Shown here one piece after another: positions 12,723 through 64,000 of a DNA stretch of 64,000 nucleotides. Source of the stretch: Candidatus Altimarinota bacterium. GTDB lineage: Bacteria; Patescibacteriota; Gracilibacteria; UBA1369; GCA-2718715. Below the pieces are notes generated by a model. It was not told the origin of the DNA and made no database searches. It saw nothing but the letters and a program-made list of their open reading frames with translations. A program made the position numbers and the translations under genes. The first letter of the stretch is position 1. Each line of letters opens with the position of its first letter. The stretch spans positions 192,001 to 256,000 of the forward strand of contig JBESAV010000001.1 of the NCBI GenBank assembly GCA_041242255.1, written 5' to 3'.

Positions 12723-12998
12723 TTGACAAAACAAATAAAAAACTTACTATTTCAAAAAGTAAGTTTTTTTATGGAATCAAATGAAATTCTTCTACAAGAA
12801 GTCATCCAAGAGATAGGAGAAATCAACCAAGACCAGGCCTACCTACTCCACCTGCTTTTCTTAGGTAATTATGAGTACAGTACTTTAAAAGAAGATCTTG
12901 AAAAAAACTTTACCAAAGAACAGATAAACCAAATTAAAAGTCACACTAACAATAGAGTCAAAACCCTTACCGAGATAACAGATTTCTCTTTTGAATAG
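12723..12998 (+). CDS. Small hypothetical protein
   Basis: ORF directly after rnj; ATG at 12771 is a more likely start; no recognisable motif. Confidence 0.5.
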   Translation: MTKQIKNLLFQKVSFFMESNEILLQEVIQEIGEINQDQAYLLHLLFLGNYEYSTLKEDLEKNFTKEQINQIKSHTNNRVKTLTEITDFSFE

Positions 12999-13024
12999 TG
13001 ATTTCCACCCAAAACCCAACATTC

Positions 13025-13620
13025 TAAATGTGCAAAACTAACAAAGAAACCTTATCAAATAGAGCAATAACCCACCCTGCAAAACTCCTGTAAAACCTAA
13101 TAGTATTAAACTATTTAACAATTGTTCCACAGCTTTTTTGACATACTAAAAATACAACGAATAATTCTTCACACAACTTTCACACACCCCTTCAGCCCAG
13201 CAAACTTTCGTCAAAGCCCAGCAAATAAATCAATCCTACAATCCACAATTACACATTTCCTCCCAACATTTTTCCCACAATCAGCCCCTTTCTCCACAAC
13301 TTATACACAATCTATACACATTTTTGTGCAAAACTATCAAGTTTCCCACAATCCATTTTTCAGCATTATTTAAACAAATCTCAAAAACAAACAATCACAA
13401 AAGCGCTTTAAATAAACATCCAACAAAAAATGTGCAAAAACTTTTTCCACAAAAATCAACCTTTTCCTCTAGTCTATAACCATAAAGCAGACTTTCACAC
13501 AAATTAACAACCTTTACACAATTCCCTTACTTATAAGCAATACTCCTCCTCTAAAACTTATACACAACAACACTACTACTACTATCTACTACTAATAATT
13601 TATTTAAATATATAAACACA
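13025..13620. other. Putative replication origin oriC
   Basis: Six TTWTNCACA matches (13029-13037 rev, 13301-13309, 13325-13333 rev, 13431-13439 rev, 13443-13451, 13558-13566) plus degenerate boxes; TAC trinucleotide run (~13572-13595) then AT-rich tract; directly upstream of dnaN. Confidence 0.85.
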
Positions 13621-13708
13621 TGTTCACAATCCCATAAACAGATAAATACAATTTTTCTTGTTTACCTCCCCCATTTCTGATTAAATTAGAACCACTAAAC
13701 AAAAACAC

Positions 13709-14818
13709 ATGAAAGCCACAATCAACCAACAGAAAATATCAAAAGCTTTAAACATTGTTACAAAAGCCATAAACAACAACAACACACTTCCAATCCTAAA
13801 TAACATCCTGATCGAAACCACAGAAAAAGGATTAAAATTCTCTGCAACAAACCTAGAAATAGCAATCAGCTACACAACAACAGGCTCCATCACAGAGCAA
13901 GGTTCGATCACAATTCCTGCCAAACTGATCACATCCTACGTTTCCCTACTCCACAACACAGACCTAGAACTTTCCACAGACGAAAAGCTTCACCTCCACA
14001 TCAACTCCGACACATCCAAAACAGAAATCAAAGGCCTTCAATCGGAAGATTATCCAACAATCCCAACAATCGAAGAAGAAGATCAATTCAAAATAAAAAT
14101 CAAAGATCTACTTCAAGCAATCAACCAAACCGTATTCGCCTCTTCAATCAACAACACTCGCCCAATCCTATCCGGTGTTTACATCCACATTCACAACAAT
14201 CAAATTACTTTCGCAGCCACTGACAGTTACCGTCTAGCAGAAAAAAAAGTTGCCATCAAAGAGTCTTCTTCAGAAGAACTTTCCTGCATCATTCCTGGAA
14301 AAACTCTGCAAGAATTGTCTAAAATTCTTCCCCTCTTCAATGAGGAACAAGAGGTTTCAATCTCTCTAAACAAAAACCAAATCGCCTTCCAACTTGAAGA
14401 ACTACTAGTTGTTTCACGGCTTATAGAAGGGAATTTCCCAAATTACCAAGCCATTATTCCAGAAGAATCCAATACCACTATTATTACAGATGCTTCAGAA
14501 TTGAACTTAGCGCTTAAAAGAATCAATCTTTTTGCACGAGAAATAAACAATTCCATCCATATGGAAGCCAACAAAGAGACCAAAAAACTCAACATCTCTA
14601 CAGATGAAACCAAGATAGGTGCCGAAGTAACTGAACTTGATATTGATATTCAGGGAGAAAACAATAGAATATCGCTGAATTCCCAATACCTCTTAGATGT
14701 ATTGAACATTCATTCTAACGGGGCTCTTATCCTCAAAGTTGTCGAAAAAAACAAACCAATCAAGGTTGTAACCGAAAAAGATGACAACTTCGTTTACATA
14801 ATCATGCCTCTCAAATAA
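13709..14818 (+). CDS. dnaN: DNA polymerase III beta sliding clamp
   Basis: 'LPILNNILI', 'ATNLE', 'ATDSYRLA', 'SRLIEGNFPNY', C-terminal 'IIMPL'. Confidence 0.97.
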   Translation: MKATINQQKISKALNIVTKAINNNNTLPILNNILIETTEKGLKFSATNLEIAISYTTTGSITEQGSITIPAKLITSYVSLLHNTDLELSTDEKLHLHINSDTSKTEIKGLQSEDYPTIPTIEEEDQFKIKIKDLLQAINQTVFASSINNTRPILSGVYIHIHNNQITFAATDSYRLAEKKVAIKESSSEELSCIIPGKTLQELSKILPLFNEEQEVSISLNKNQIAFQLEELLVVSRLIEGNFPNYQAIIPEESNTTIITDASELNLALKRINLFAREINNSIHMEANKETKKLNISTDETKIGAEVTELDIDIQGENNRISLNSQYLLDVLNIHSNGALILKVVEKNKPIKVVTEKDDNFVYIIMPLK

Positions 14819-57655: not shown

Positions 57656-60640
57656 CTATTTTTCTTCTGTTATTTCAATTTCCGCCTTGTCAGATTCCAT
57701 TACATCTTTGATTCCTTTCTTTTTGTTATAAAGATACCAAGCAGTAAACAGTAGTATTAGAGCTAGTATTACAAGAGCAGGAGTAAATCCAGTAGGAAGT
57801 ACAATATATTCAACTACAACTGGCACACTGTTCGCGTTAGCTTTCTCTGCAAGTATCGTTACTTTATGACGGCTAAATGGCTCAATCTCAGCCACAGTCT
57901 CGTCAGGTGCGTATAGAACAGTCTCATCAGAGTTTGAACCAGTTATCGCTGAAGATCCAAACATAATACTCTGCCATAATGCTTTATGGTTAGTATTCAA
58001 CTCACTCTTAACACGTGCGCTTAAGCCACCGTTGTTGATCGTATTCATACTTACAAATGTCCAATAGTTAACACCATCTTCATTTGATTCGTATAGTCTG
58101 TTCACATCTTTCTCAGCAAAGCTAATCAAATTAGCTTCAATTAGTCGAACGCTATTTGATATCGCTAGTCCGTAATCTGGTGATTGTGTAGGAGTAGCAA
58201 CATCCCTACCATATACCAAGATATCATCACTTAAAGGTAAGCTTGTTCTGTTTCTTAAAAGGAATTTACCTGCCTCATCTACAGCTGCTATACCAAGTGA
58301 GTATTCACTATCAGCAATTACTGCAATAACCTCAACATTTTCAATAGATGAATCAGATACTTTACCGGCAATAACTATATCATCACTTCCATATCTAGAT
58401 TGTCTGTCTCTAGGTAGGTTAAGTTGGATAGTCGGTGCATCTTCATCTTCTTCAATAAACTCTTCACTTGGGTCACAGTCATATGACTTAGACTCTTCGT
58501 ACTCAATTTCAGAGTTATAATCTCCACATTCTTCAACTTCTTGAGATTGGTTCACTCTACCACCAGATCCATTTCCAGTAGTTAGGCTACCATTAAAGCT
58601 GATCTCTGCCTCTTCCTCTTCAGGTTGCTCTTCAGCAGTTTCTTCTTCAACAGGCTCCTCAGTAACTTGTTGTTCTTGAGGTTGTTCTTCCTCAACAGGT
58701 TGTGGTTCAGGCTCAGGAGTAACTATAGGCTGTTCTTCAGCAGTTTCTTCTTCAACGGGCTCTACTGTAACTTGTTCTTCTTGAGTTTGCTCTTCCTCAA
58801 CAGGTTCCTCAGTAACTTCTTGTTCTTCAGCAGTTTCTTCTTCAACAGGCTCTACTTCAGGGGTAGTATTTGATGCGCCAAAAGGATTTGATCCACCGCT
58901 TCCACTTGAAGATGATCCACTTCCACCAGAGCTAGGTGCAGGTTCCTCTACAACACCTACCAGATCATTTGGTAAGTTAAAAGATAAGTGTGTGAAGTCA
59001 TCCATTGAGTTATTTGCAAGATCCTGGAATACATCCGCATTTGGTGTAAATGAATCTGCTACTATATCCACACCATCCTCATCTATAAGACCAGCTGTAA
59101 CAACGTACGTAAATCCAAGTTCGTTATCTAGCAAAGTAGTATTAAGAGGGAAGTCATAGTCGGCTGTTACTATCACGCCACCAATGTCTAGGTCGATAGT
59201 TGATGTTCCATCTAGGGTCGCTTTGTTAACATCTTCATTCAGCTCTAGAATAGCCTCAATAGTATCACCTTCTTGGTGATTAGTTTCAACGTCCGCACCT
59301 CTACCATTATTTATGAATGGCCTTATACCATCAATTACAATATCTTTTGCAAATGAAAGTGATCCTACAATACCAGGTTCAGGTAAGTCTGTTGGAATAA
59401 CGGGTTGTCCTGGTCCAGTTTCAAAATAATAATCACCAACAAAGTTATCAGGTGCAAAGTCTTGATCTTTAAATTCAGCAGTACCAAGGTCAATAGCATC
59501 AGTTCCCGTATAGGATAGGTCAGATGATGAATCTCCTTCTGTTACTGTATATAAAAATCTCAGGAATGTTACAGGGCTACCTGGTCCAGTTCCTGCGAAA
59601 TTTTCATCAGTTCCTGTTGCCAGGTTGATTCCTCCTCCAGTAAAGGTGTCATCAGGTAGATTTTCAAGTGTTGCTTGTGATGTACCTGAATCAAGTTGTA
59701 ATTCTAAAGTAGGGTCCACTGTAGGCAATGGATCAAAAAACTCATCTCTAGGTTGATTGTAGTAAAAAAGCGTATCCGAATCAGATAAATTAACATCAAT
59801 GTTAATTTGATCACCAATACCATAAGTTTGGTCGGCATCTAGAGATGTTACATCTTCAGTCTCTCCAATATTAGTATTAGTAATTCTATATGTCTCAGTG
59901 CTTGATAGACCTCCGTCATCAGTGGCTTGAAGCGTTATATCATAAAAATCCACTCCGCCTCTATCTTCATAGTCGTAATCAGGTTGGAAGATTGTTAACC
60001 TAAAGTAAGTTCCCCCAAAACCATCGTCATATTCTTCAATAGATGGAGTAAATAAACCTGAACAGTCATCTGTGTTATTGTCTACACAGCTTACTTCTGC
60101 CACAGTTAGTGTGTCTGTAGTATCATCAGCATCAGGATCAAATAACATAGTCGTATTTTCAGAATAGAAGACTTGCCCATTATCACCTTGTTCTTCAAAT
60201 CTTAGTAATACAAAGTTTGCAGGGTTTTCAAAAGTAGGTGGCTCTGGTACGTCAGTAATATTAATTGTTATATCCTGAAAGATTGTAACTCCACCTGCTT
60301 CTTGTGCCTCAACACCTAGGGTGTATGATGCTCCAGCGTTAATGAGGTCATCTCTAACCAGCAAGATATCTCCGTTTGTATCAACATCAAATCTGAAGTT
60401 ACCAGGGCTAGATCCATCTGCTCCAGTCTCAAAAAATGTTATGTCTCCTGGGTCAGCATCAGTTTCTAGTGTTCCAACCACGCCATTAGTGGCGTTTTCA
60501 GGAACATCTAATATCGTGTCTCCAGGTGTCCCATCAACATATATTTGTGTTGGCGAGTCAGCACTAGCAACCATAGAGAAAGACATTGTCATCACTACAG
60601 TCAATAAAAAGCTAGTGCATTTCCTCAATAATTTTTTCAT
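57656..60640 (-). CDS. Large acidic surface protein with cadherin/Ig-like domains, Pro/Glu-rich stalk and C-terminal TM anchor
   Basis: Signal peptide; 'VPEN', 'ITDVPEPP', 'ATDDGGLS'; EPVEEE repeats; TM plus basic tail. Confidence 0.75.
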   Translation of the reverse strand: MKKLLRKCTSFLLTVVMTMSFSMVASADSPTQIYVDGTPGDTILDVPENATNGVVGTLETDADPGDITFFETGADGSSPGNFRFDVDTNGDILLVRDDLINAGASYTLGVEAQEAGGVTIFQDITINITDVPEPPTFENPANFVLLRFEEQGDNGQVFYSENTTMLFDPDADDTTDTLTVAEVSCVDNNTDDCSGLFTPSIEEYDDGFGGTYFRLTIFQPDYDYEDRGGVDFYDITLQATDDGGLSSTETYRITNTNIGETEDVTSLDADQTYGIGDQINIDVNLSDSDTLFYYNQPRDEFFDPLPTVDPTLELQLDSGTSQATLENLPDDTFTGGGINLATGTDENFAGTGPGSPVTFLRFLYTVTEGDSSSDLSYTGTDAIDLGTAEFKDQDFAPDNFVGDYYFETGPGQPVIPTDLPEPGIVGSLSFAKDIVIDGIRPFINNGRGADVETNHQEGDTIEAILELNEDVNKATLDGTSTIDLDIGGVIVTADYDFPLNTTLLDNELGFTYVVTAGLIDEDGVDIVADSFTPNADVFQDLANNSMDDFTHLSFNLPNDLVGVVEEPAPSSGGSGSSSSGSGGSNPFGASNTTPEVEPVEEETAEEQEVTEEPVEEEQTQEEQVTVEPVEEETAEEQPIVTPEPEPQPVEEEQPQEQQVTEEPVEEETAEEQPEEEEAEISFNGSLTTGNGSGGRVNQSQEVEECGDYNSEIEYEESKSYDCDPSEEFIEEDEDAPTIQLNLPRDRQSRYGSDDIVIAGKVSDSSIENVEVIAVIADSEYSLGIAAVDEAGKFLLRNRTSLPLSDDILVYGRDVATPTQSPDYGLAISNSVRLIEANLISFAEKDVNRLYESNEDGVNYWTFVSMNTINNGGLSARVKSELNTNHKALWQSIMFGSSAITGSNSDETVLYAPDETVAEIEPFSRHKVTILAEKANANSVPVVVEYIVLPTGFTPALVILALILLFTAWYLYNKKKGIKDVMESDKAEIEITEEK
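58610..58860 (-). repeat. Coding repeats EPVEEETAEEQ / EQQVTEEPVEE
   Basis: Three copies of 'tcttcagcagtttcttcttcaac' with interspersed variants. Confidence 0.8.
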
Positions 60641-60706
60641 AAATTAAAATTAACTAATCTATGAATTATAACAAAAAAAACACTTTTTTAAAAGTGTCAA
60701 ATTTGA

Positions 60707-60783
60707 TGGTCGGGGTAGCAGGACTCGAACCTGCGACCTCACGCTCCCAAAGCGCGCGCGCTAGCCAACTGCGCCATACCCCG
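60707..60783 (-). tRNA. tRNA-Pro(TGG)
   Basis: Reverse complement cggggta...cgcgc-tt TGG ga-gcgtg...taccccgacca. Confidence 0.95.
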
Positions 60784-60805
60784 ATGTCAAAATAACATGA
60801 GGATC

Positions 60806-61288
60806 TTATATTATGTCTTCGTAATAATCAATATCTAATTTCTTCAATATGTAATCAGTTTCCTTATTCATAAGCTCTTCTTCTGTATCATTTTCATGTG
60901 TATATCCACAAATATGTAAAAAACCATGTGTGATTAGGAATAAGACTTCTTGTCTTAAATCTTTAGATTTTTTATTAGCCTTCGCTACAACGTAATCATC
61001 TGATAGATAAATCTCACCAAAAATCTTATTGTCCTGAATGTCAGTTTCGTACATTTCCCATGATAGTACGTCTGTTACCATGTCTTTTCCACGCCTTGCA
61101 GAGTTTATCCCTTTTATCTGTAAGTCTGTTATGAAGTAAATCTCCAGAATAGCGTTAGTTGTCACTCTTGATAGATGAGGCTTGTATTCTGATAGGTACT
61201 TGTTAAGTGTTGTTTCAAATTCTATTAGAGTAAACTGATCCAACAGAGTTTCTAACGACTGAGACTCAAAATGTAAGTTTAGTTTCAT
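60806..61288 (-). CDS. ybeY: rRNA maturation endoribonuclease YbeY
   Basis: 'TDVLSW', 'GEIYLS', 'HGFLHICGYTH'. Confidence 0.93.
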   Translation of the reverse strand: MKLNLHFESQSLETLLDQFTLIEFETTLNKYLSEYKPHLSRVTTNAILEIYFITDLQIKGINSARRGKDMVTDVLSWEMYETDIQDNKIFGEIYLSDDYVVAKANKKSKDLRQEVLFLITHGFLHICGYTHENDTEEELMNKETDYILKKLDIDYYEDII

Positions 61289-61342
61289 GTCTTATTTGAT
61301 GTGTTTAGTTAAATATTACCCTATATATGTAAAAAGTGAAGT

Positions 61343-61800
61343 TGTCAGACGTGTCTGCGCCATGTCTTTTGTTTTAAGTCTTGTTTTTAAGGCATTTTTA
61401 TTTTGTCTGTCAGACAAAGTCGCGTCTGGCATTGACATGGCGCAGTCAATATAAGACAATAGCCTTAGTTTAAAGACATATGTCATGACAAGTCTCTACA
61501 GTATAGACAGGCAGAACGCTGCACGGATCCTTGGTGTGTCAGTCAGGACAGTCGACAGGTATATATCATCTGGTAAGATCAGAAAGGTCAAAAATCAAGG
61601 TAGGACATGGTTGTCTAATGAAGACATTAAGTCTATGGTTTCTGACAACGTTCAGACAGGTGCTGACAATGTCGCGTCAGAGTTCTTTTCGCAGACAGAT
61701 AAAGCACAAAGACAGTCAGATCATGTCTCAAATAACAATAACTCAGATAGCTTTTCTCAAGAGTCAGCATACAGAAGGCAAGAACCTCCAAGAGACAGTC
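61343..61800. repeat. Dense GAC/GTC (mostly GACA/TGTC) motif array
   Basis: About 40 GAC/GTC trinucleotides by hand count in ~460 bp; perfect 12-bp inverted repeat 61355-61366 / 61434-61445. Confidence 0.7.
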
Positions 61801-62159
61801 AGATGAATTACAAATCATTGTATGAAGAAGCAAAAGACGAGTTAGAAGAAAAAAATAAAAAACTGCAACAAGCCACTTACAGAATCGGACAACTAGAGTC
61901 ACAAGTGAAATCAATGATTCCTCAAATTGAATATGAAAAAACGCAAAAGTTGTTAAGTCAGAAGGTACAAAATGCAGAAATTATGCTTAGTCAAGAAGTT
62001 CAAAAAAGAGAAACTGCAACAAAAAAACTACTTGGAGAGCTTAAAATAAAAGAAAGTGAACTTGAAAGTGAAAAGTTCAACAAAGCTATTTTTGCTATTC
62101 TTCTGTTTTTAATAACCTTCACTTTAATTTTTGTTATCTTTCTTAATTACTTAAGTTAA
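61485..62159 (+). CDS. HTH (MerR/excisionase-like) plus coiled-coil protein with C-terminal transmembrane helix
   Basis: 'IDRQNAARILGVSVRTVDRYISSGKI'; 'YRIGQLESQV' coiled coil; ends 'AIFAILLFLITFTLIFVIFLNYLS'. Confidence 0.82.
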   Translation: MTSLYSIDRQNAARILGVSVRTVDRYISSGKIRKVKNQGRTWLSNEDIKSMVSDNVQTGADNVASEFFSQTDKAQRQSDHVSNNNNSDSFSQESAYRRQEPPRDSQMNYKSLYEEAKDELEEKNKKLQQATYRIGQLESQVKSMIPQIEYEKTQKLLSQKVQNAEIMLSQEVQKRETATKKLLGELKIKESELESEKFNKAIFAILLFLITFTLIFVIFLNYLS

Positions 62160-62338
62160 AAAGCTTCTCTGTTTTTTGTAAAGATCTCGAGTGTTGAATA
62201 AAAATAGTGTACAGATTTCAAGCTAACCTCAACAATAGGGGCTTTTTGTCATTCGCTTAATTAGTTTTCACATAGTCTATGCAATTCAAATAGATTTACA
62301 TTCATGGTAAAATCATATGATTTAATTAAATAAATTGT

Positions 62339-64000
62339 ATGTTTGCCCGCATATCAAAACCCAAAAACAAGCTGCAGAAGGTCCAGCTCAAAGCTTTAAT
62401 AGCACTGATATTTAGTTTTTGCCTACTTTCAGTAATTGACCTTCAAAGTAATAACTACGATGATTTATTAATATTCAAGTCAGAAGTAGCTTTTGCCGAT
62501 GTAAACGTAACTTCCTGTGAGCAGTTTCAAGGTACTGCTGCAGCAGGGACAAATCTTATCGATAACCCAGGTGAGACTTTTTTACTACAAAACGATATAG
62601 ATTGTGCTGGTGCTTCAATATCACCAATATTCCCAAGCAACAACAAGTTCACTGGTATTTTCGAAGGTAATGGTTTCACATTATCAAACTTCATTGTTCC
62701 ATCTTCATCAAGAGCCTCTTTATTTGGATATACAAGTAGTTCTACAATTCAAAATCTAACAATTAGAGACGCAGGTGTTACCTGTGATACAGGTGGTTAT
62801 TGTGCGGTCTTAATCGGGGATGATACTGAGTCAACAATTGATAACATAACCTTAATCAATACAACTTTAACCCAAAATGGAGGTAACGACCGTATGGGTT
62901 CTGTAATCGGTTCAGGTTTAGGTTCTCAGGTATCAAACGTAACTGTTGATGATTTTCAACTGACTTGTGATCAACTTTTTAGTGGATCCTGTCAGTATCT
63001 AGGAGGGGCTCTAGGGTTCATCAGTGACAATGCCACAGTTCAAGCATTTATTCAAAACGTAAGCGTAAACAACGCTACTATTTATGGACACGATAACATT
63101 GGTGGGGTTATAGGTTACATAAGTGAATCAAATGCTGATAATCTTACTGCTACAAACATCACCCTAGGGGGGCTAACAAATGTAGGTGGTGTAGTAGGTC
63201 AGCTTTTAGGTACAAATGGGTTAGAAGCTTATTTAGACAACTCTAGCGCTACAAACGTTACTCATGATCCTCAGGCTTACCTAACAGCAACTGGAAATAG
63301 TTCTACTAGTGTAACAGCTGTAGGAGGGTTGATAGGTACTGCCTCAAACTATACAAGTGTAAACTGTGGAGGAGAAACCACTAATTTCTACAACTCATCT
63401 TTGGCTAGTACAGTTAAGGTCGGAGGATTGATAGGTGATGCTAACTTTTTAGCTGCTACAGCCTCTGATGCTGTTAACTACACAGTAGAAAATTGTACAA
63501 CTTCTGGTTCTATCGAAGGGCGTACCTATCTTGGTGGAGTTATCGGTGAAGCTGCTGAAGGTAGATACAACAACCTTAACTCTACAGTAAACATTAAATT
63601 CACAGGTTCATCTCCTAATATTGGTGGTGGTATAATGGGGTGGTTTGATTTTTTAAACCCAGTAGAACCTGTTGGTTTAAGTAATTGTAGTTATACAGGT
63701 CAGATTAGTCTGGGTGACTATACAGGTACTACACCAAGTTACCTTGGAGGTATAGCTGGAGACTTAGATCACGCTTCTATAGATAATTGTACAGTTGATG
63801 TTTCCATACTTTCGCCAGAATCCATTTACATAGGTGGAGCAGTTGGAGCAGCTGGTGGGTCAACTACTGACTTAAATAATGTTATTTCAAATATTACTGC
63901 TAATGTTGAATTACAAGGTGAGCAATATGTTGGTGGTATAGTCGGACAGGCTACTGGTTACCTTCTCGATAATAATTCTGCTTCAGGAACGATAGATGGT
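62339..64000 (+). CDS. GLUG-motif surface protein, partial (runs off window end; absent from ORF track)
   Basis: ATG 62339 MFARISKPK...; 'LQNDIDC', 'FTGIFEGNGFTLSN'; repeated 'VGGLIG/VGGIVG/LGGVIG' motifs. Confidence 0.8.
   Translation, partial: MFARISKPKNKLQKVQLKALIALIFSFCLLSVIDLQSNNYDDLLIFKSEVAFADVNVTSCEQFQGTAAAGTNLIDNPGETFLLQNDIDCAGASISPIFPSNNKFTGIFEGNGFTLSNFIVPSSSRASLFGYTSSSTIQNLTIRDAGVTCDTGGYCAVLIGDDTESTIDNITLINTTLTQNGGNDRMGSVIGSGLGSQVSNVTVDDFQLTCDQLFSGSCQYLGGALGFISDNATVQAFIQNVSVNNATIYGHDNIGGVIGYISESNADNLTATNITLGGLTNVGGVVGQLLGTNGLEAYLDNSSATNVTHDPQAYLTATGNSSTSVTAVGGLIGTASNYTSVNCGGETTNFYNSSLASTVKVGGLIGDANFLAATASDAVNYTVENCTTSGSIEGRTYLGGVIGEAAEGRYNNLNSTVNIKFTGSSPNIGGGIMGWFDFLNPVEPVGLSNCSYTGQISLGDYTGTTPSYLGGIAGDLDHASIDNCTVDVSILSPESIYIGGAVGAAGGSTTDLNNVISNITANVELQGEQYVGGIVGQATGYLLDNNSASGTIDG

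Follow-up and report, generated by a model that had tools for sequence, protein, structure and literature searches.

In the one-contig genome of an uncultured bacterium of Candidatus Altimarinota, a dense cluster of GAC/GTC trinucleotides spans the promoter and the 5' part of a gene for a helix-turn-helix (HTH) protein with a predicted membrane anchor. The DNA we analysed, called the window below, is a 64-kb stretch (contig JBESAV010000001.1, positions 192,001 to 256,000; G000:C1:192001-256000 in our numbering) of a genome of 1,000,477 bp that has 36.4% G+C and is 98.5% complete. The cluster, at 61343-61800 of the window, shows selection at the DNA level, recurs at most orthologous genes and lies close to the likely origin of replication. 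It is very probably a functional protein-binding array, and the HTH protein encoded there is likely to be its binder. Tethering or segregation may also be part of its function, a suggestion that we hold with slightly less than even confidence.

The array and selection on its DNA

An earlier note on this DNA, made from the sequence, had counted about 40 GAC/GTC trinucleotides by hand in about 460 bp. The exact count in the 458 bp of the array is 40 (17 GAC and 23 GTC), and none of 1271 windows of that length, taken in 50-bp steps across the 64 kb, reaches it (mean 7.85, standard deviation (sd) 3.87). For the genome-wide null we used 458-bp windows for the whole array and 196-bp windows for its intergenic part. 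Across the genome, 458-bp windows hold a mean of 7.12 GAC/GTC (sd 2.99) and the array is the maximum of the 1.0 Mb, the next separate peaks being 29 at 263 kb and 22 at 261.7 kb. The array also comes out on top in the genome-wide GACA/TGTC scan that the note had proposed, with 26 copies against a mean of 2.0 (sd 1.57) and a next peak of 14, and it holds 14 AGACA/TGTCT against 0.85±0.98. The base before GAC is A or T at 34 of the 40 sites and the base after it at 36, 26 of these being A. The features of the array are as follows.

61343..61800, no strand: whole array, 40 GAC/GTC half-sites of the form W-GAC-W in both orientations; genome-wide maximum
61289..61484, no strand: upstream non-coding block, the divergent promoter region between ybeY and the HTH gene; 16 GAC/GTC
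61352-61366 / 61434-61448, no strand: 15-nt inverted repeat TGTCTGCGCCATGTC / GACATGGCGCAGTCA with a spacer of 67 nt; 93% complementary, half-sites in both arms
61432..61460, + strand: promoter-like TTGACA-17-GACAAT, a consensus match only (10 of 12 positions); each hexamer overlaps array half-sites

The recurring words listed in the earlier note (tgtcagac at 61343 and 61408, gtcgcgtc at 61419 and 61671, gacagtcaga at 61711 and 61794) are where it placed them, and the 12-bp inverted repeat that it described is real and slightly longer, at the 15 nt given above. Two blocks about 250-300 bp apart share composite elements, D3 (GACAA[A/T]GTCGCGTC, at 61413 and 61665) and also I5. Promoter-like sites number 5 in the region, against 3.6±2.3 in shuffled sequence. 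An Rfam scan matched no family to the array; its sole match was a tRNA-Pro at 60707-60783.

The other GAC-rich peaks of the genome were considered as sister arrays and rejected. They are features of another kind: acidic, D/E-rich coding sequence at 261.7 and 263 kb, and a tandem repeat in coding DNA at 333 kb. The 333-kb peak, the second highest for GACA/TGTC, is made of tandem coding units of about 42 bp (ggcatgtcaggatccatgtccattccggcatccattcccat...) at genome 333,150-333,500, within a 429-amino-acid open reading frame (ORF) on the − strand.

Since the array runs from non-coding into coding DNA, the coding part was compared with two codon nulls of 3000 draws each, in which codons for the same protein were drawn from genome codon usage or synonymous codons were permuted inside the segment. 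Codons 1-106 contain 25 GAC/GTC. Draws from genome usage give 9.5±2.3 and none of the 3000 reaches 25; permuting synonymous codons gives 18.2±2.0 and 3 of the 3000 reach it. From codon 107 to the end there are 5 against 4.6 expected, and the array thus thins at the start of the conserved helical part of the protein, as had been claimed. The intergenic 196 bp (61289-61484) hold 16 GAC/GTC against 3.05±1.82 genome-wide, and apart from this locus, at 253 kb, the only place with 196-bp windows holding at least 16 is the acidic coding sequence at 263 kb. The excess therefore survives both the synonymous-codon control and the intergenic control that the earlier note had named, and its statement that the array crosses the coding boundary and is not sufficiently explained by protein composition stands.

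The sites also use all reading frames. In this gene the counts for frames 0/1/2 are 6/1/5 for GAC and 5/2/6 for GTC; in 25 orthologues they are 115/39/53 and 53/25/69. Within the coding block, the peptide that a given DNA word encodes varies from lineage to lineage: repeats of GACAGACA give D-R-Q-runs in L016, and GACatGACaGACatGAC is read as DMTDMT in L002. Passing the codon null, lying in three frames and both orientations, and being present in non-coding DNA together support selection of the array at the DNA level. Protein-binding sites appear to shape the coding sequence here, as an overlapping code. An artefact of composition or codon choice was rejected on the codon null, the intergenic excess and the use of all frames in orthologues.

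Orthologous loci and the encoded protein

We used two sets of orthologous loci: 26 loci from 26 genomes, and 77 usable loci of 80 further ones (L095-L174), whose record titles name Candidatus Peregrinibacteria, Peribacteria, Gracilibacteria or Patescibacteria assemblies. The sets overlap and kin within them are not independent. A locus was scored as conserved if GAC/GTC were in at least 2-fold excess from -300 to +350 with a Poisson P<1e-3. This was so at 15 of the 26 loci and at 57 of the 77, where the median ratio was 2.30 and the pooled count 2136 against 905 expected. The enrichment at orthologous loci that the earlier note had looked to is thus present, and it has been kept although the proteins are only 25-49% identical. 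The excess falls in two blocks, -200..0 (promoter) and +150..+300 (linker-coding DNA).

The half-site drawn from 943 upstream sites is T(68%)-A(52%)-GAC-A(71%), or TAGACA, and a palindrome TGTCTATAGACA is seen in several lineages. The 10-bp palindrome GTCTATAGAC has four of its five genomic copies at the gene in G040, two of three in G010 and both of two in G024; genome-wide it was not found in G000, the genome analysed here, or in G025, and a reversed control pattern occurs 0-1 times per strand. Where it occurs, GTCTATAGAC is nearly confined to the locus. Nothing therefore points to a regulon, and the most economical candidate for the binder is the HTH protein that the locus itself encodes.

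Spacing was scored against random placement of sites. For sites of like orientation, pair distances peak at 9-12, 20-22, 32-34 and 42-45 bp; for GTC..GAC pairs the peaks are at 5-7, 14-18, 27-29 and 37-40 bp, so that opposite orientations are in antiphase. The period for same-orientation sites is 11.0 bp in 20 loci (z 6.1) and also in the 19 that remain when this window is left out (z 6.4), and in the upstream block of the 77 loci it is again 11.0 bp (z 17.1). In the coding block (+150..+350) of the same 77 loci the period is 12.0 bp (z 8.2), with z at 11 bp only 1.6. Helical phase in the coding block appears to have been rounded to whole codons, 12 being the nearest multiple of 3. The runs with 10-11 bp spacing to which the earlier note had drawn attention (61434/61445/61455 and 61644/61655/61665) are present. 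Its claim of helical phasing holds for the pooled loci but is weak for this window by itself, a point taken up below.

A second, unrelated-looking family of tail-anchored HTH proteins (f42; 401-515 amino acids) was seen in 5 of 6 genomes of another order. Three of its loci (L033, L042 and L044, in G132, G060 and G173) carry 18-26 GGACA/TGTCC within the gene's own coding sequence but a single copy in the upstream 300 bp. Their motif core is CGGACAT, and ATGTCC lies mostly in frame 0, read as 'MS', but also in another frame as 'NVR'. This case suggests that the phenomenon is wider, with motif variants tracking the protein family.

The gene, the parts of its product and its divergent neighbour are as follows.

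61485..62159, + strand: gene (an ORF) for the 224-amino-acid tail-anchored HTH protein; HTH_17 match, E 1.1e-7
61515..61613, + strand: HTH_17 / MerR-like DNA-binding domain, residues 11-43; invariant S19, R21, T22, D24, R25 and Y26 (SxRTxDRY)
61632..61805, + strand: variable linker, residues ~50-107, S/D/R/T-rich; its coding DNA holds the intragenic array block
61806..62078, + strand: conserved helical region YRxGQLEaQ...vPlLEy, delimited by conservation
62088..62144, + strand: predicted C-terminal transmembrane tail anchor, residues 202-220, followed by 4 residues; Kyte-Doolittle 19-residue mean 3.16
60806..61288, − strand: ybeY, divergent; YbeY match, E 7.9e-28

HTH_17 was matched in all 16 family members and MerR in 14 of the 16 at E<=1 (best 3.3e-4), the match of this protein (20.8 bits) lying below the cut-off of 28.2. 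Among solved structures, the nearest in sequence is that of the phage excisionase Gp37 (4j2n; E 0.009-0.016). The helical region is presumably a coiled coil, to judge from its sequence and from weak Pfam matches to coiled-coil families. A hydrophobic 19-mer ending at most 12 residues from the C-terminus is encoded at all 26 loci of the first set, and this predicted tail anchor bears out the earlier description of the product as a membrane-anchored HTH protein.

The gene is a conserved single-copy gene with a homologue in 39 of 41 genomes of the same order. A profile search of 1.84 billion representative proteins found 136 clusters at E<=1e-30 and 371 at E<=1e-10, and the public names of homologues are 'hypothetical protein' or 'helix-turn-helix domain-containing protein' only. 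Among 201 genomes of the phylum, profile A1 gave full-length matches in the same order only (5 of 5, this genome included), together with one partial match in the same class; in the remaining genomes of this sample the match was limited to the HTH domain. In the literature we found no paper connecting this type of protein with Patescibacteria.

Upstream, ybeY is the neighbour at 9 of 20 loci; on the other side the flanking gene in this genome encodes a GLUG-repeat protein. The tRNA-Pro beyond ybeY, 0.6 kb from the locus, is the sole mobile-element-like feature. The locus is flanked by two very large predicted surface proteins. One, at 57656-60640 (−), has 994 amino acids with acidic E/P/Q-rich repeats and a C-terminal hydrophobic segment and has no Pfam match; the other, at 62339-64000 (+), has more than 553 amino acids and GLUG motifs.

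Genomic position and partition genes

The position of the array was related to two features of the window.

12998..13708, no strand: candidate oriC, a DnaA-box-rich intergenic region just 5' of dnaN, 48 kb from the array
13709..14818, + strand: dnaN (sliding clamp), the origin marker, taken as such from a reading of the ORF

No 700 bp of the genome hold more DnaA boxes (<=2 mismatches) than the candidate oriC, with 13 against a mean of 3.3 (sd 1.9). Cumulative GC skew, detrended by removing the strand-class means, has its minimum at genome position 208,269 and its maximum at 757,650. The density of DnaA boxes, the adjacent dnaN and the detrended skew minimum together point to a likely oriC at about 205 kb, and the array is then 48 kb from it, or 4.8% of the genome. 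Each of four other complete genomes has one full-length dnaN homologue (39-48% identical). In all five complete genomes the HTH gene is near dnaN, at 48 (G000), 104, 122, 63 and 72 kb, which is 4.5-9.1% of the genome; it lies downstream of dnaN in G000 and G257 and upstream in G010, G262 and G256. In five further assemblies the gene and dnaN share a contig and are 38-135 kb apart, a sample that is biased to short distances.

Two other placements were rejected. The array is not beside dnaA, which lies at genome 828321-828806, about 623 kb from the likely oriC, and is 0.38-0.46 genome lengths from the HTH gene across the five complete genomes; dnaN and dnaA are far apart in the four other genomes too. 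Nor is oriC at the array, where there is one DnaA-box-like word (<=1 mismatch) within 1 kb, the best cluster and the skew minimum both being at dnaN.

Small GACA/TGTC clusters (7 in 200 bp) occur near the candidate origin, at genome 204.2 and 240.5 kb (window ~12230 and ~48510). Of the 24 densest 200-bp windows outside the array, 11 are within 60 kb of the candidate origin, and overall density there is not raised (1.11).

The base composition of this genome is unusual. The + strand breaks Chargaff's second rule (A 349,178, T 287,205, C 229,343, G 134,751), C exceeds G in all but one of the fifty full 20-kb bins (+64 at 560 kb), and raw cumulative skew falls almost monotonically, to -94,600. 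Gene orientation does not explain this, ORFs covering 433 kb on one strand and 485 kb on the other; skew is -0.14 for genes on the + strand, -0.37 for those on the − strand and -0.22 where the DNA is non-coding. The V shape, with its minimum at 208 kb and maximum at 758 kb, emerges only after the class means are removed. The complete relative G262 has the same one-sided skew in 19 of 20 samples of 10 kb.

We searched G000 for partition genes and found no ParB_N, no AAA_31 (ParA/MinD-type) ATPase and no SMC hinge, the control genomes being positive for each; FtsK is present. ParB_N was found in 9 of 61 genomes of the order, in frames of 245-482 amino acids and three times in G256, and one genome of the order also has a weak match below the cut-off in a 155-amino-acid frame. 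These ParB_N proteins look like a mobile or fused form and not like canonical ParB. As neither ParB_N, a ParA-type ATPase nor an SMC hinge was found in this genome, some other positioning device would be expected. A centromere-like role for the array gains added support from this and from its nearness to the origin in all five complete genomes.

Function of the array and likeness to known systems

The earlier note's interpretation of the locus as a helically phased multi-site binding array and tethering site of the encoded protein is partly supported, by DNA-level selection, conservation, pooled phasing, a locus-restricted motif and the predicted tail anchor; the phasing within this single window is among its weak points. 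Our preferred reading is that the array may be both the HTH protein's own operator and a centromere-like membrane tether, by analogy with RicO, RocS, RacA and pSK1 Par, and we favour this tentatively, at just under even confidence. Dimers or oligomers of the protein, joined by the helical region, would sit on one face of the DNA across the array in two bound blocks, the first covering the promoter and the second lying within the DNA that encodes the linker. As the promoter block overlaps the likely -35 and -10 hexamers, binding there would repress the HTH gene. As each bound protein carries a transmembrane tail, the complex would hold the locus at the membrane; the tails would thus fix a single origin-proximal locus to the cytoplasmic membrane and might help to position or separate sister origins. 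This would be a tether of a centromere-like kind that needs one protein and no nucleoside triphosphatase (NTPase), in a lineage that is without ParABS and SMC. The intragenic block encodes an unconstrained linker, so that sites could accumulate there.

A bolder form of this reading, which we regard as somewhat doubtful, is that Patescibacteria of the Peregrinibacteria type that are without ParABS and SMC position or segregate their chromosome by one tail-anchored HTH protein and a single centromere near the origin. In this centromere as many as about 40 helically phased TAGACA half-sites would be gathered, with half of the array written into the DNA for the protein's own disordered linker. This would be a minimal chromosomal kinetochore without an NTPase. 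Selection on the DNA sites would then dictate the linker peptide and lengthen the phase from 11 bp to 12, in keeping with the reading frame. In either form a conserved protein that is named only 'hypothetical' or 'HTH domain-containing' would gain a plausible role and a defined cis site, the array and gene could mark the origin region in fragmented assemblies of the lineage, and both bear on the question of how ultrasmall Patescibacteria partition their chromosomes.

A simpler account, which we consider unlikely, is that the array serves as an autoregulatory operator only. Cooperative binding, by looping between the blocks or by blocking transcription, would keep the amount of the protein constant; its main task would be another one at the membrane, perhaps that of a scaffold for division or the envelope, and it would have no part in positioning the chromosome. 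The promoter-like hexamers do overlap half-sites, the motif is essentially restricted to the gene's own locus, the blocks about 250-300 bp apart share D3 and I5, f6 loci hold just 3-5 sites at -70..-15, and plasmid centromere-binding proteins autoregulate too. However, about 40 half-sites in 460 bp is far above the need of known operators and is the genome's densest cluster of the motif, the gene is origin-proximal in five of five complete genomes on either side of dnaN, and no ParB_N, ParA-type ATPase or SMC hinge was found in the genome. It is improbable that the array is bound by some other protein (a second regulator, a nucleoid protein or sigma region 4 of RNA polymerase) and that the HTH gene is a mere target or neighbour. 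The half-site is short, TAGACA is similar to TTGACA, the -35 hexamer, and at 9 of 20 loci the gene upstream is ybeY. Yet the array tracks the HTH gene at 57 or more of 77 loci even where the neighbours differ, and the longer palindrome is near-exclusive to the locus, so that a separate, dedicated factor would be required. The f42 proteins, carrying their own variant CGGACAT inside their own genes, also fit self-recognition.

That the array is a replication element, whether secondary-origin iterons, a DnaA-titration-like site or a terminus element, seems very improbable. The candidate oriC is no more than 5% of the genome away, the phased repeats of the array are iteron-like and the skew of the genome is abnormal, but there is a single DnaA-box-like word within 1 kb, the candidate oriC adjoins dnaN 48 kb away, no replication gene is adjacent and the distance to dnaN varies from 38 to 135 kb. 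We give almost no credence to the idea that the array is functionless and merely follows from amino-acid composition, from codon choice or from the expansion of repeats in a low-complexity linker. The linker is indeed S/D/R/T-rich, some orthologues have true tandem repeats (such as GACAGACA in L016), and 115 of 207 GAC in the orthologue coding parts are in-frame Asp codons. Against this, no draw of the codon null reached the observed count, non-coding DNA shows an excess just as strong, sites occur in both orientations and in all frames, the non-coding DNA has its 11-bp phase (z 17.1), and the array is conserved across proteins that are 25-49% identical.

Several observations weigh against the operator-and-tether reading that we prefer. 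The period in this window alone is 10.0 bp and is not significant (z 1.9). Among the 77 loci, 20 have less than a 2-fold excess and 5 less than 1.2-fold; family f6 (L024 and L025) keeps 3-5 taGACa sites at -70..-15 with no intragenic block, and L027, a partial homologue from the same class, has no sites. Some lineages can therefore do without the large array, as fits a core role in autoregulation. The ancestral core was probably a small promoter operator, with the large array an elaboration in most but not all lineages. The oriC was placed from dnaN, box density and detrended skew in a genome whose raw skew is abnormal, and the margin of the DnaA-box peak is small (13, the next being 12, 12 and 11). 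Nearness to the origin may partly reflect conserved gene order. Outside the array the motif is not enriched near the origin (density ratio 1.11-1.16, controls 0.92-1.21), unlike the dispersed ram and ricS sites, and dispersed secondary sites near the origin were rejected on this ratio. The match to RacA (5i41) has an E of 1.4, which is not significant, and RacA is missing from the profile search; DUF536, the module of RocS and Par, was matched in none of 16 members at E<=1. Sequence homology does not establish that the protein belongs to the RacA/RocS/RicO/Par group. When a 75%-identical homologue was used in a language-model search for look-alikes, a Bacillota 'putative DUF536' cluster came at rank 7 (0.91), which is a lead only.

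Some known types of protein resemble this one in part. The HTH_17 proteins of the excisionase and BldC kind are small and soluble, with no coiled coil or anchor, whereas this protein has 224 amino acids and a tail anchor; BldC is reported to form cooperative multimers on direct repeats (PMC5859096). No integrase-like ORF flanks the gene within 59000-64000. With a tail-anchored protein of 224 amino acids found in 39 of 41 genomes of the order, and no such flanking ORF, an excisionase was rejected. A membrane transcription factor of the ToxR/CadC type was also rejected, there being no extracytoplasmic sensor and only 4 residues after the transmembrane segment. In B. subtilis, parS lies within spo0J, and the array resembles ParB-parS in being an origin-proximal site of a kind that can sit inside a gene. 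It differs from ParB-parS in motif and fold, and no ParB_N or ParA-type ATPase was found here.

Plasmid centromeres offer a closer parallel in layout. StbA (on stbS of R388), ParR (on parC) and TubR (on tubC) bind centromere arrays that have cycles of about 11-12 bp, often fall into two sets, lie in the promoters of the proteins' own genes and are used for autoregulation, and StbA and pSK1 Par work without a partner NTPase (10.1101/2022.04.29.490116). The array is like these centromeres in having its repeats in the promoter of the HTH gene (16 sites in 196 bp), with a conserved upstream block, and in its spacing of about one turn, which is 11.0 bp in the pooled upstream blocks (z 17.1; z 1.9 in this window). 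A partner NTPase of the ParM, TubZ or ParA type was not found in the neighbourhood (ybeY and the GLUG-repeat protein), nor AAA_31 in the genome. Unlike the plasmid systems, the array is chromosomal, its half-sites are of mixed orientation and not regular direct repeats, its second set is inside coding sequence with a phase of 12 bp, and its putative binder has a membrane anchor of its own. The folds differ as well, StbA being PadR-like and ParR ribbon-helix-helix, neither of them HTH_17.

The predicted architecture of the protein resembles that of RicO, RocS, RacA and pSK1 Par. In published accounts, all four combine a MerR-type HTH at the N-terminus with a coiled coil in the middle and an anchor to membrane or pole at the C-terminus, and they position origin-proximal or plasmid DNA via specific sites without an NTPase of their own. 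By the same accounts, RicO binds nine ricS sites, spread over about 700 kb on and around oriC, by an N-terminal HTH whose R18 is essential, and attaches to the membrane by a C-terminal amphipathic helix; RocS has the three modules (HTH, coiled coil and anchor) and DUF536, which pSK1 Par shares; and RacA binds the ram palindrome TGACGCCGGCGTCA near the origin, with 25 ram regions. The ram palindrome, as given there, also ends TGAC/GTCA. The differences lie in the anchor, in the sites and in the host. The anchor here is a predicted transmembrane tail and not an amphipathic helix or a contact with DivIVA. The sites here, about 40 half-sites, are packed into one dense array at the gene of the protein itself and lie partly in coding DNA, whereas those of RicO and RacA are dispersed. 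Neither ParB nor SMC was found in this host, whereas the hosts of RicO, RocS and RacA retain both. If the operator-and-tether reading is true, the single-protein tether of the RocS, RicO, RacA and Par style would extend beyond the Firmicutes, and the form found here would be more extreme, the anchor being transmembrane and the sites gathered into one array.

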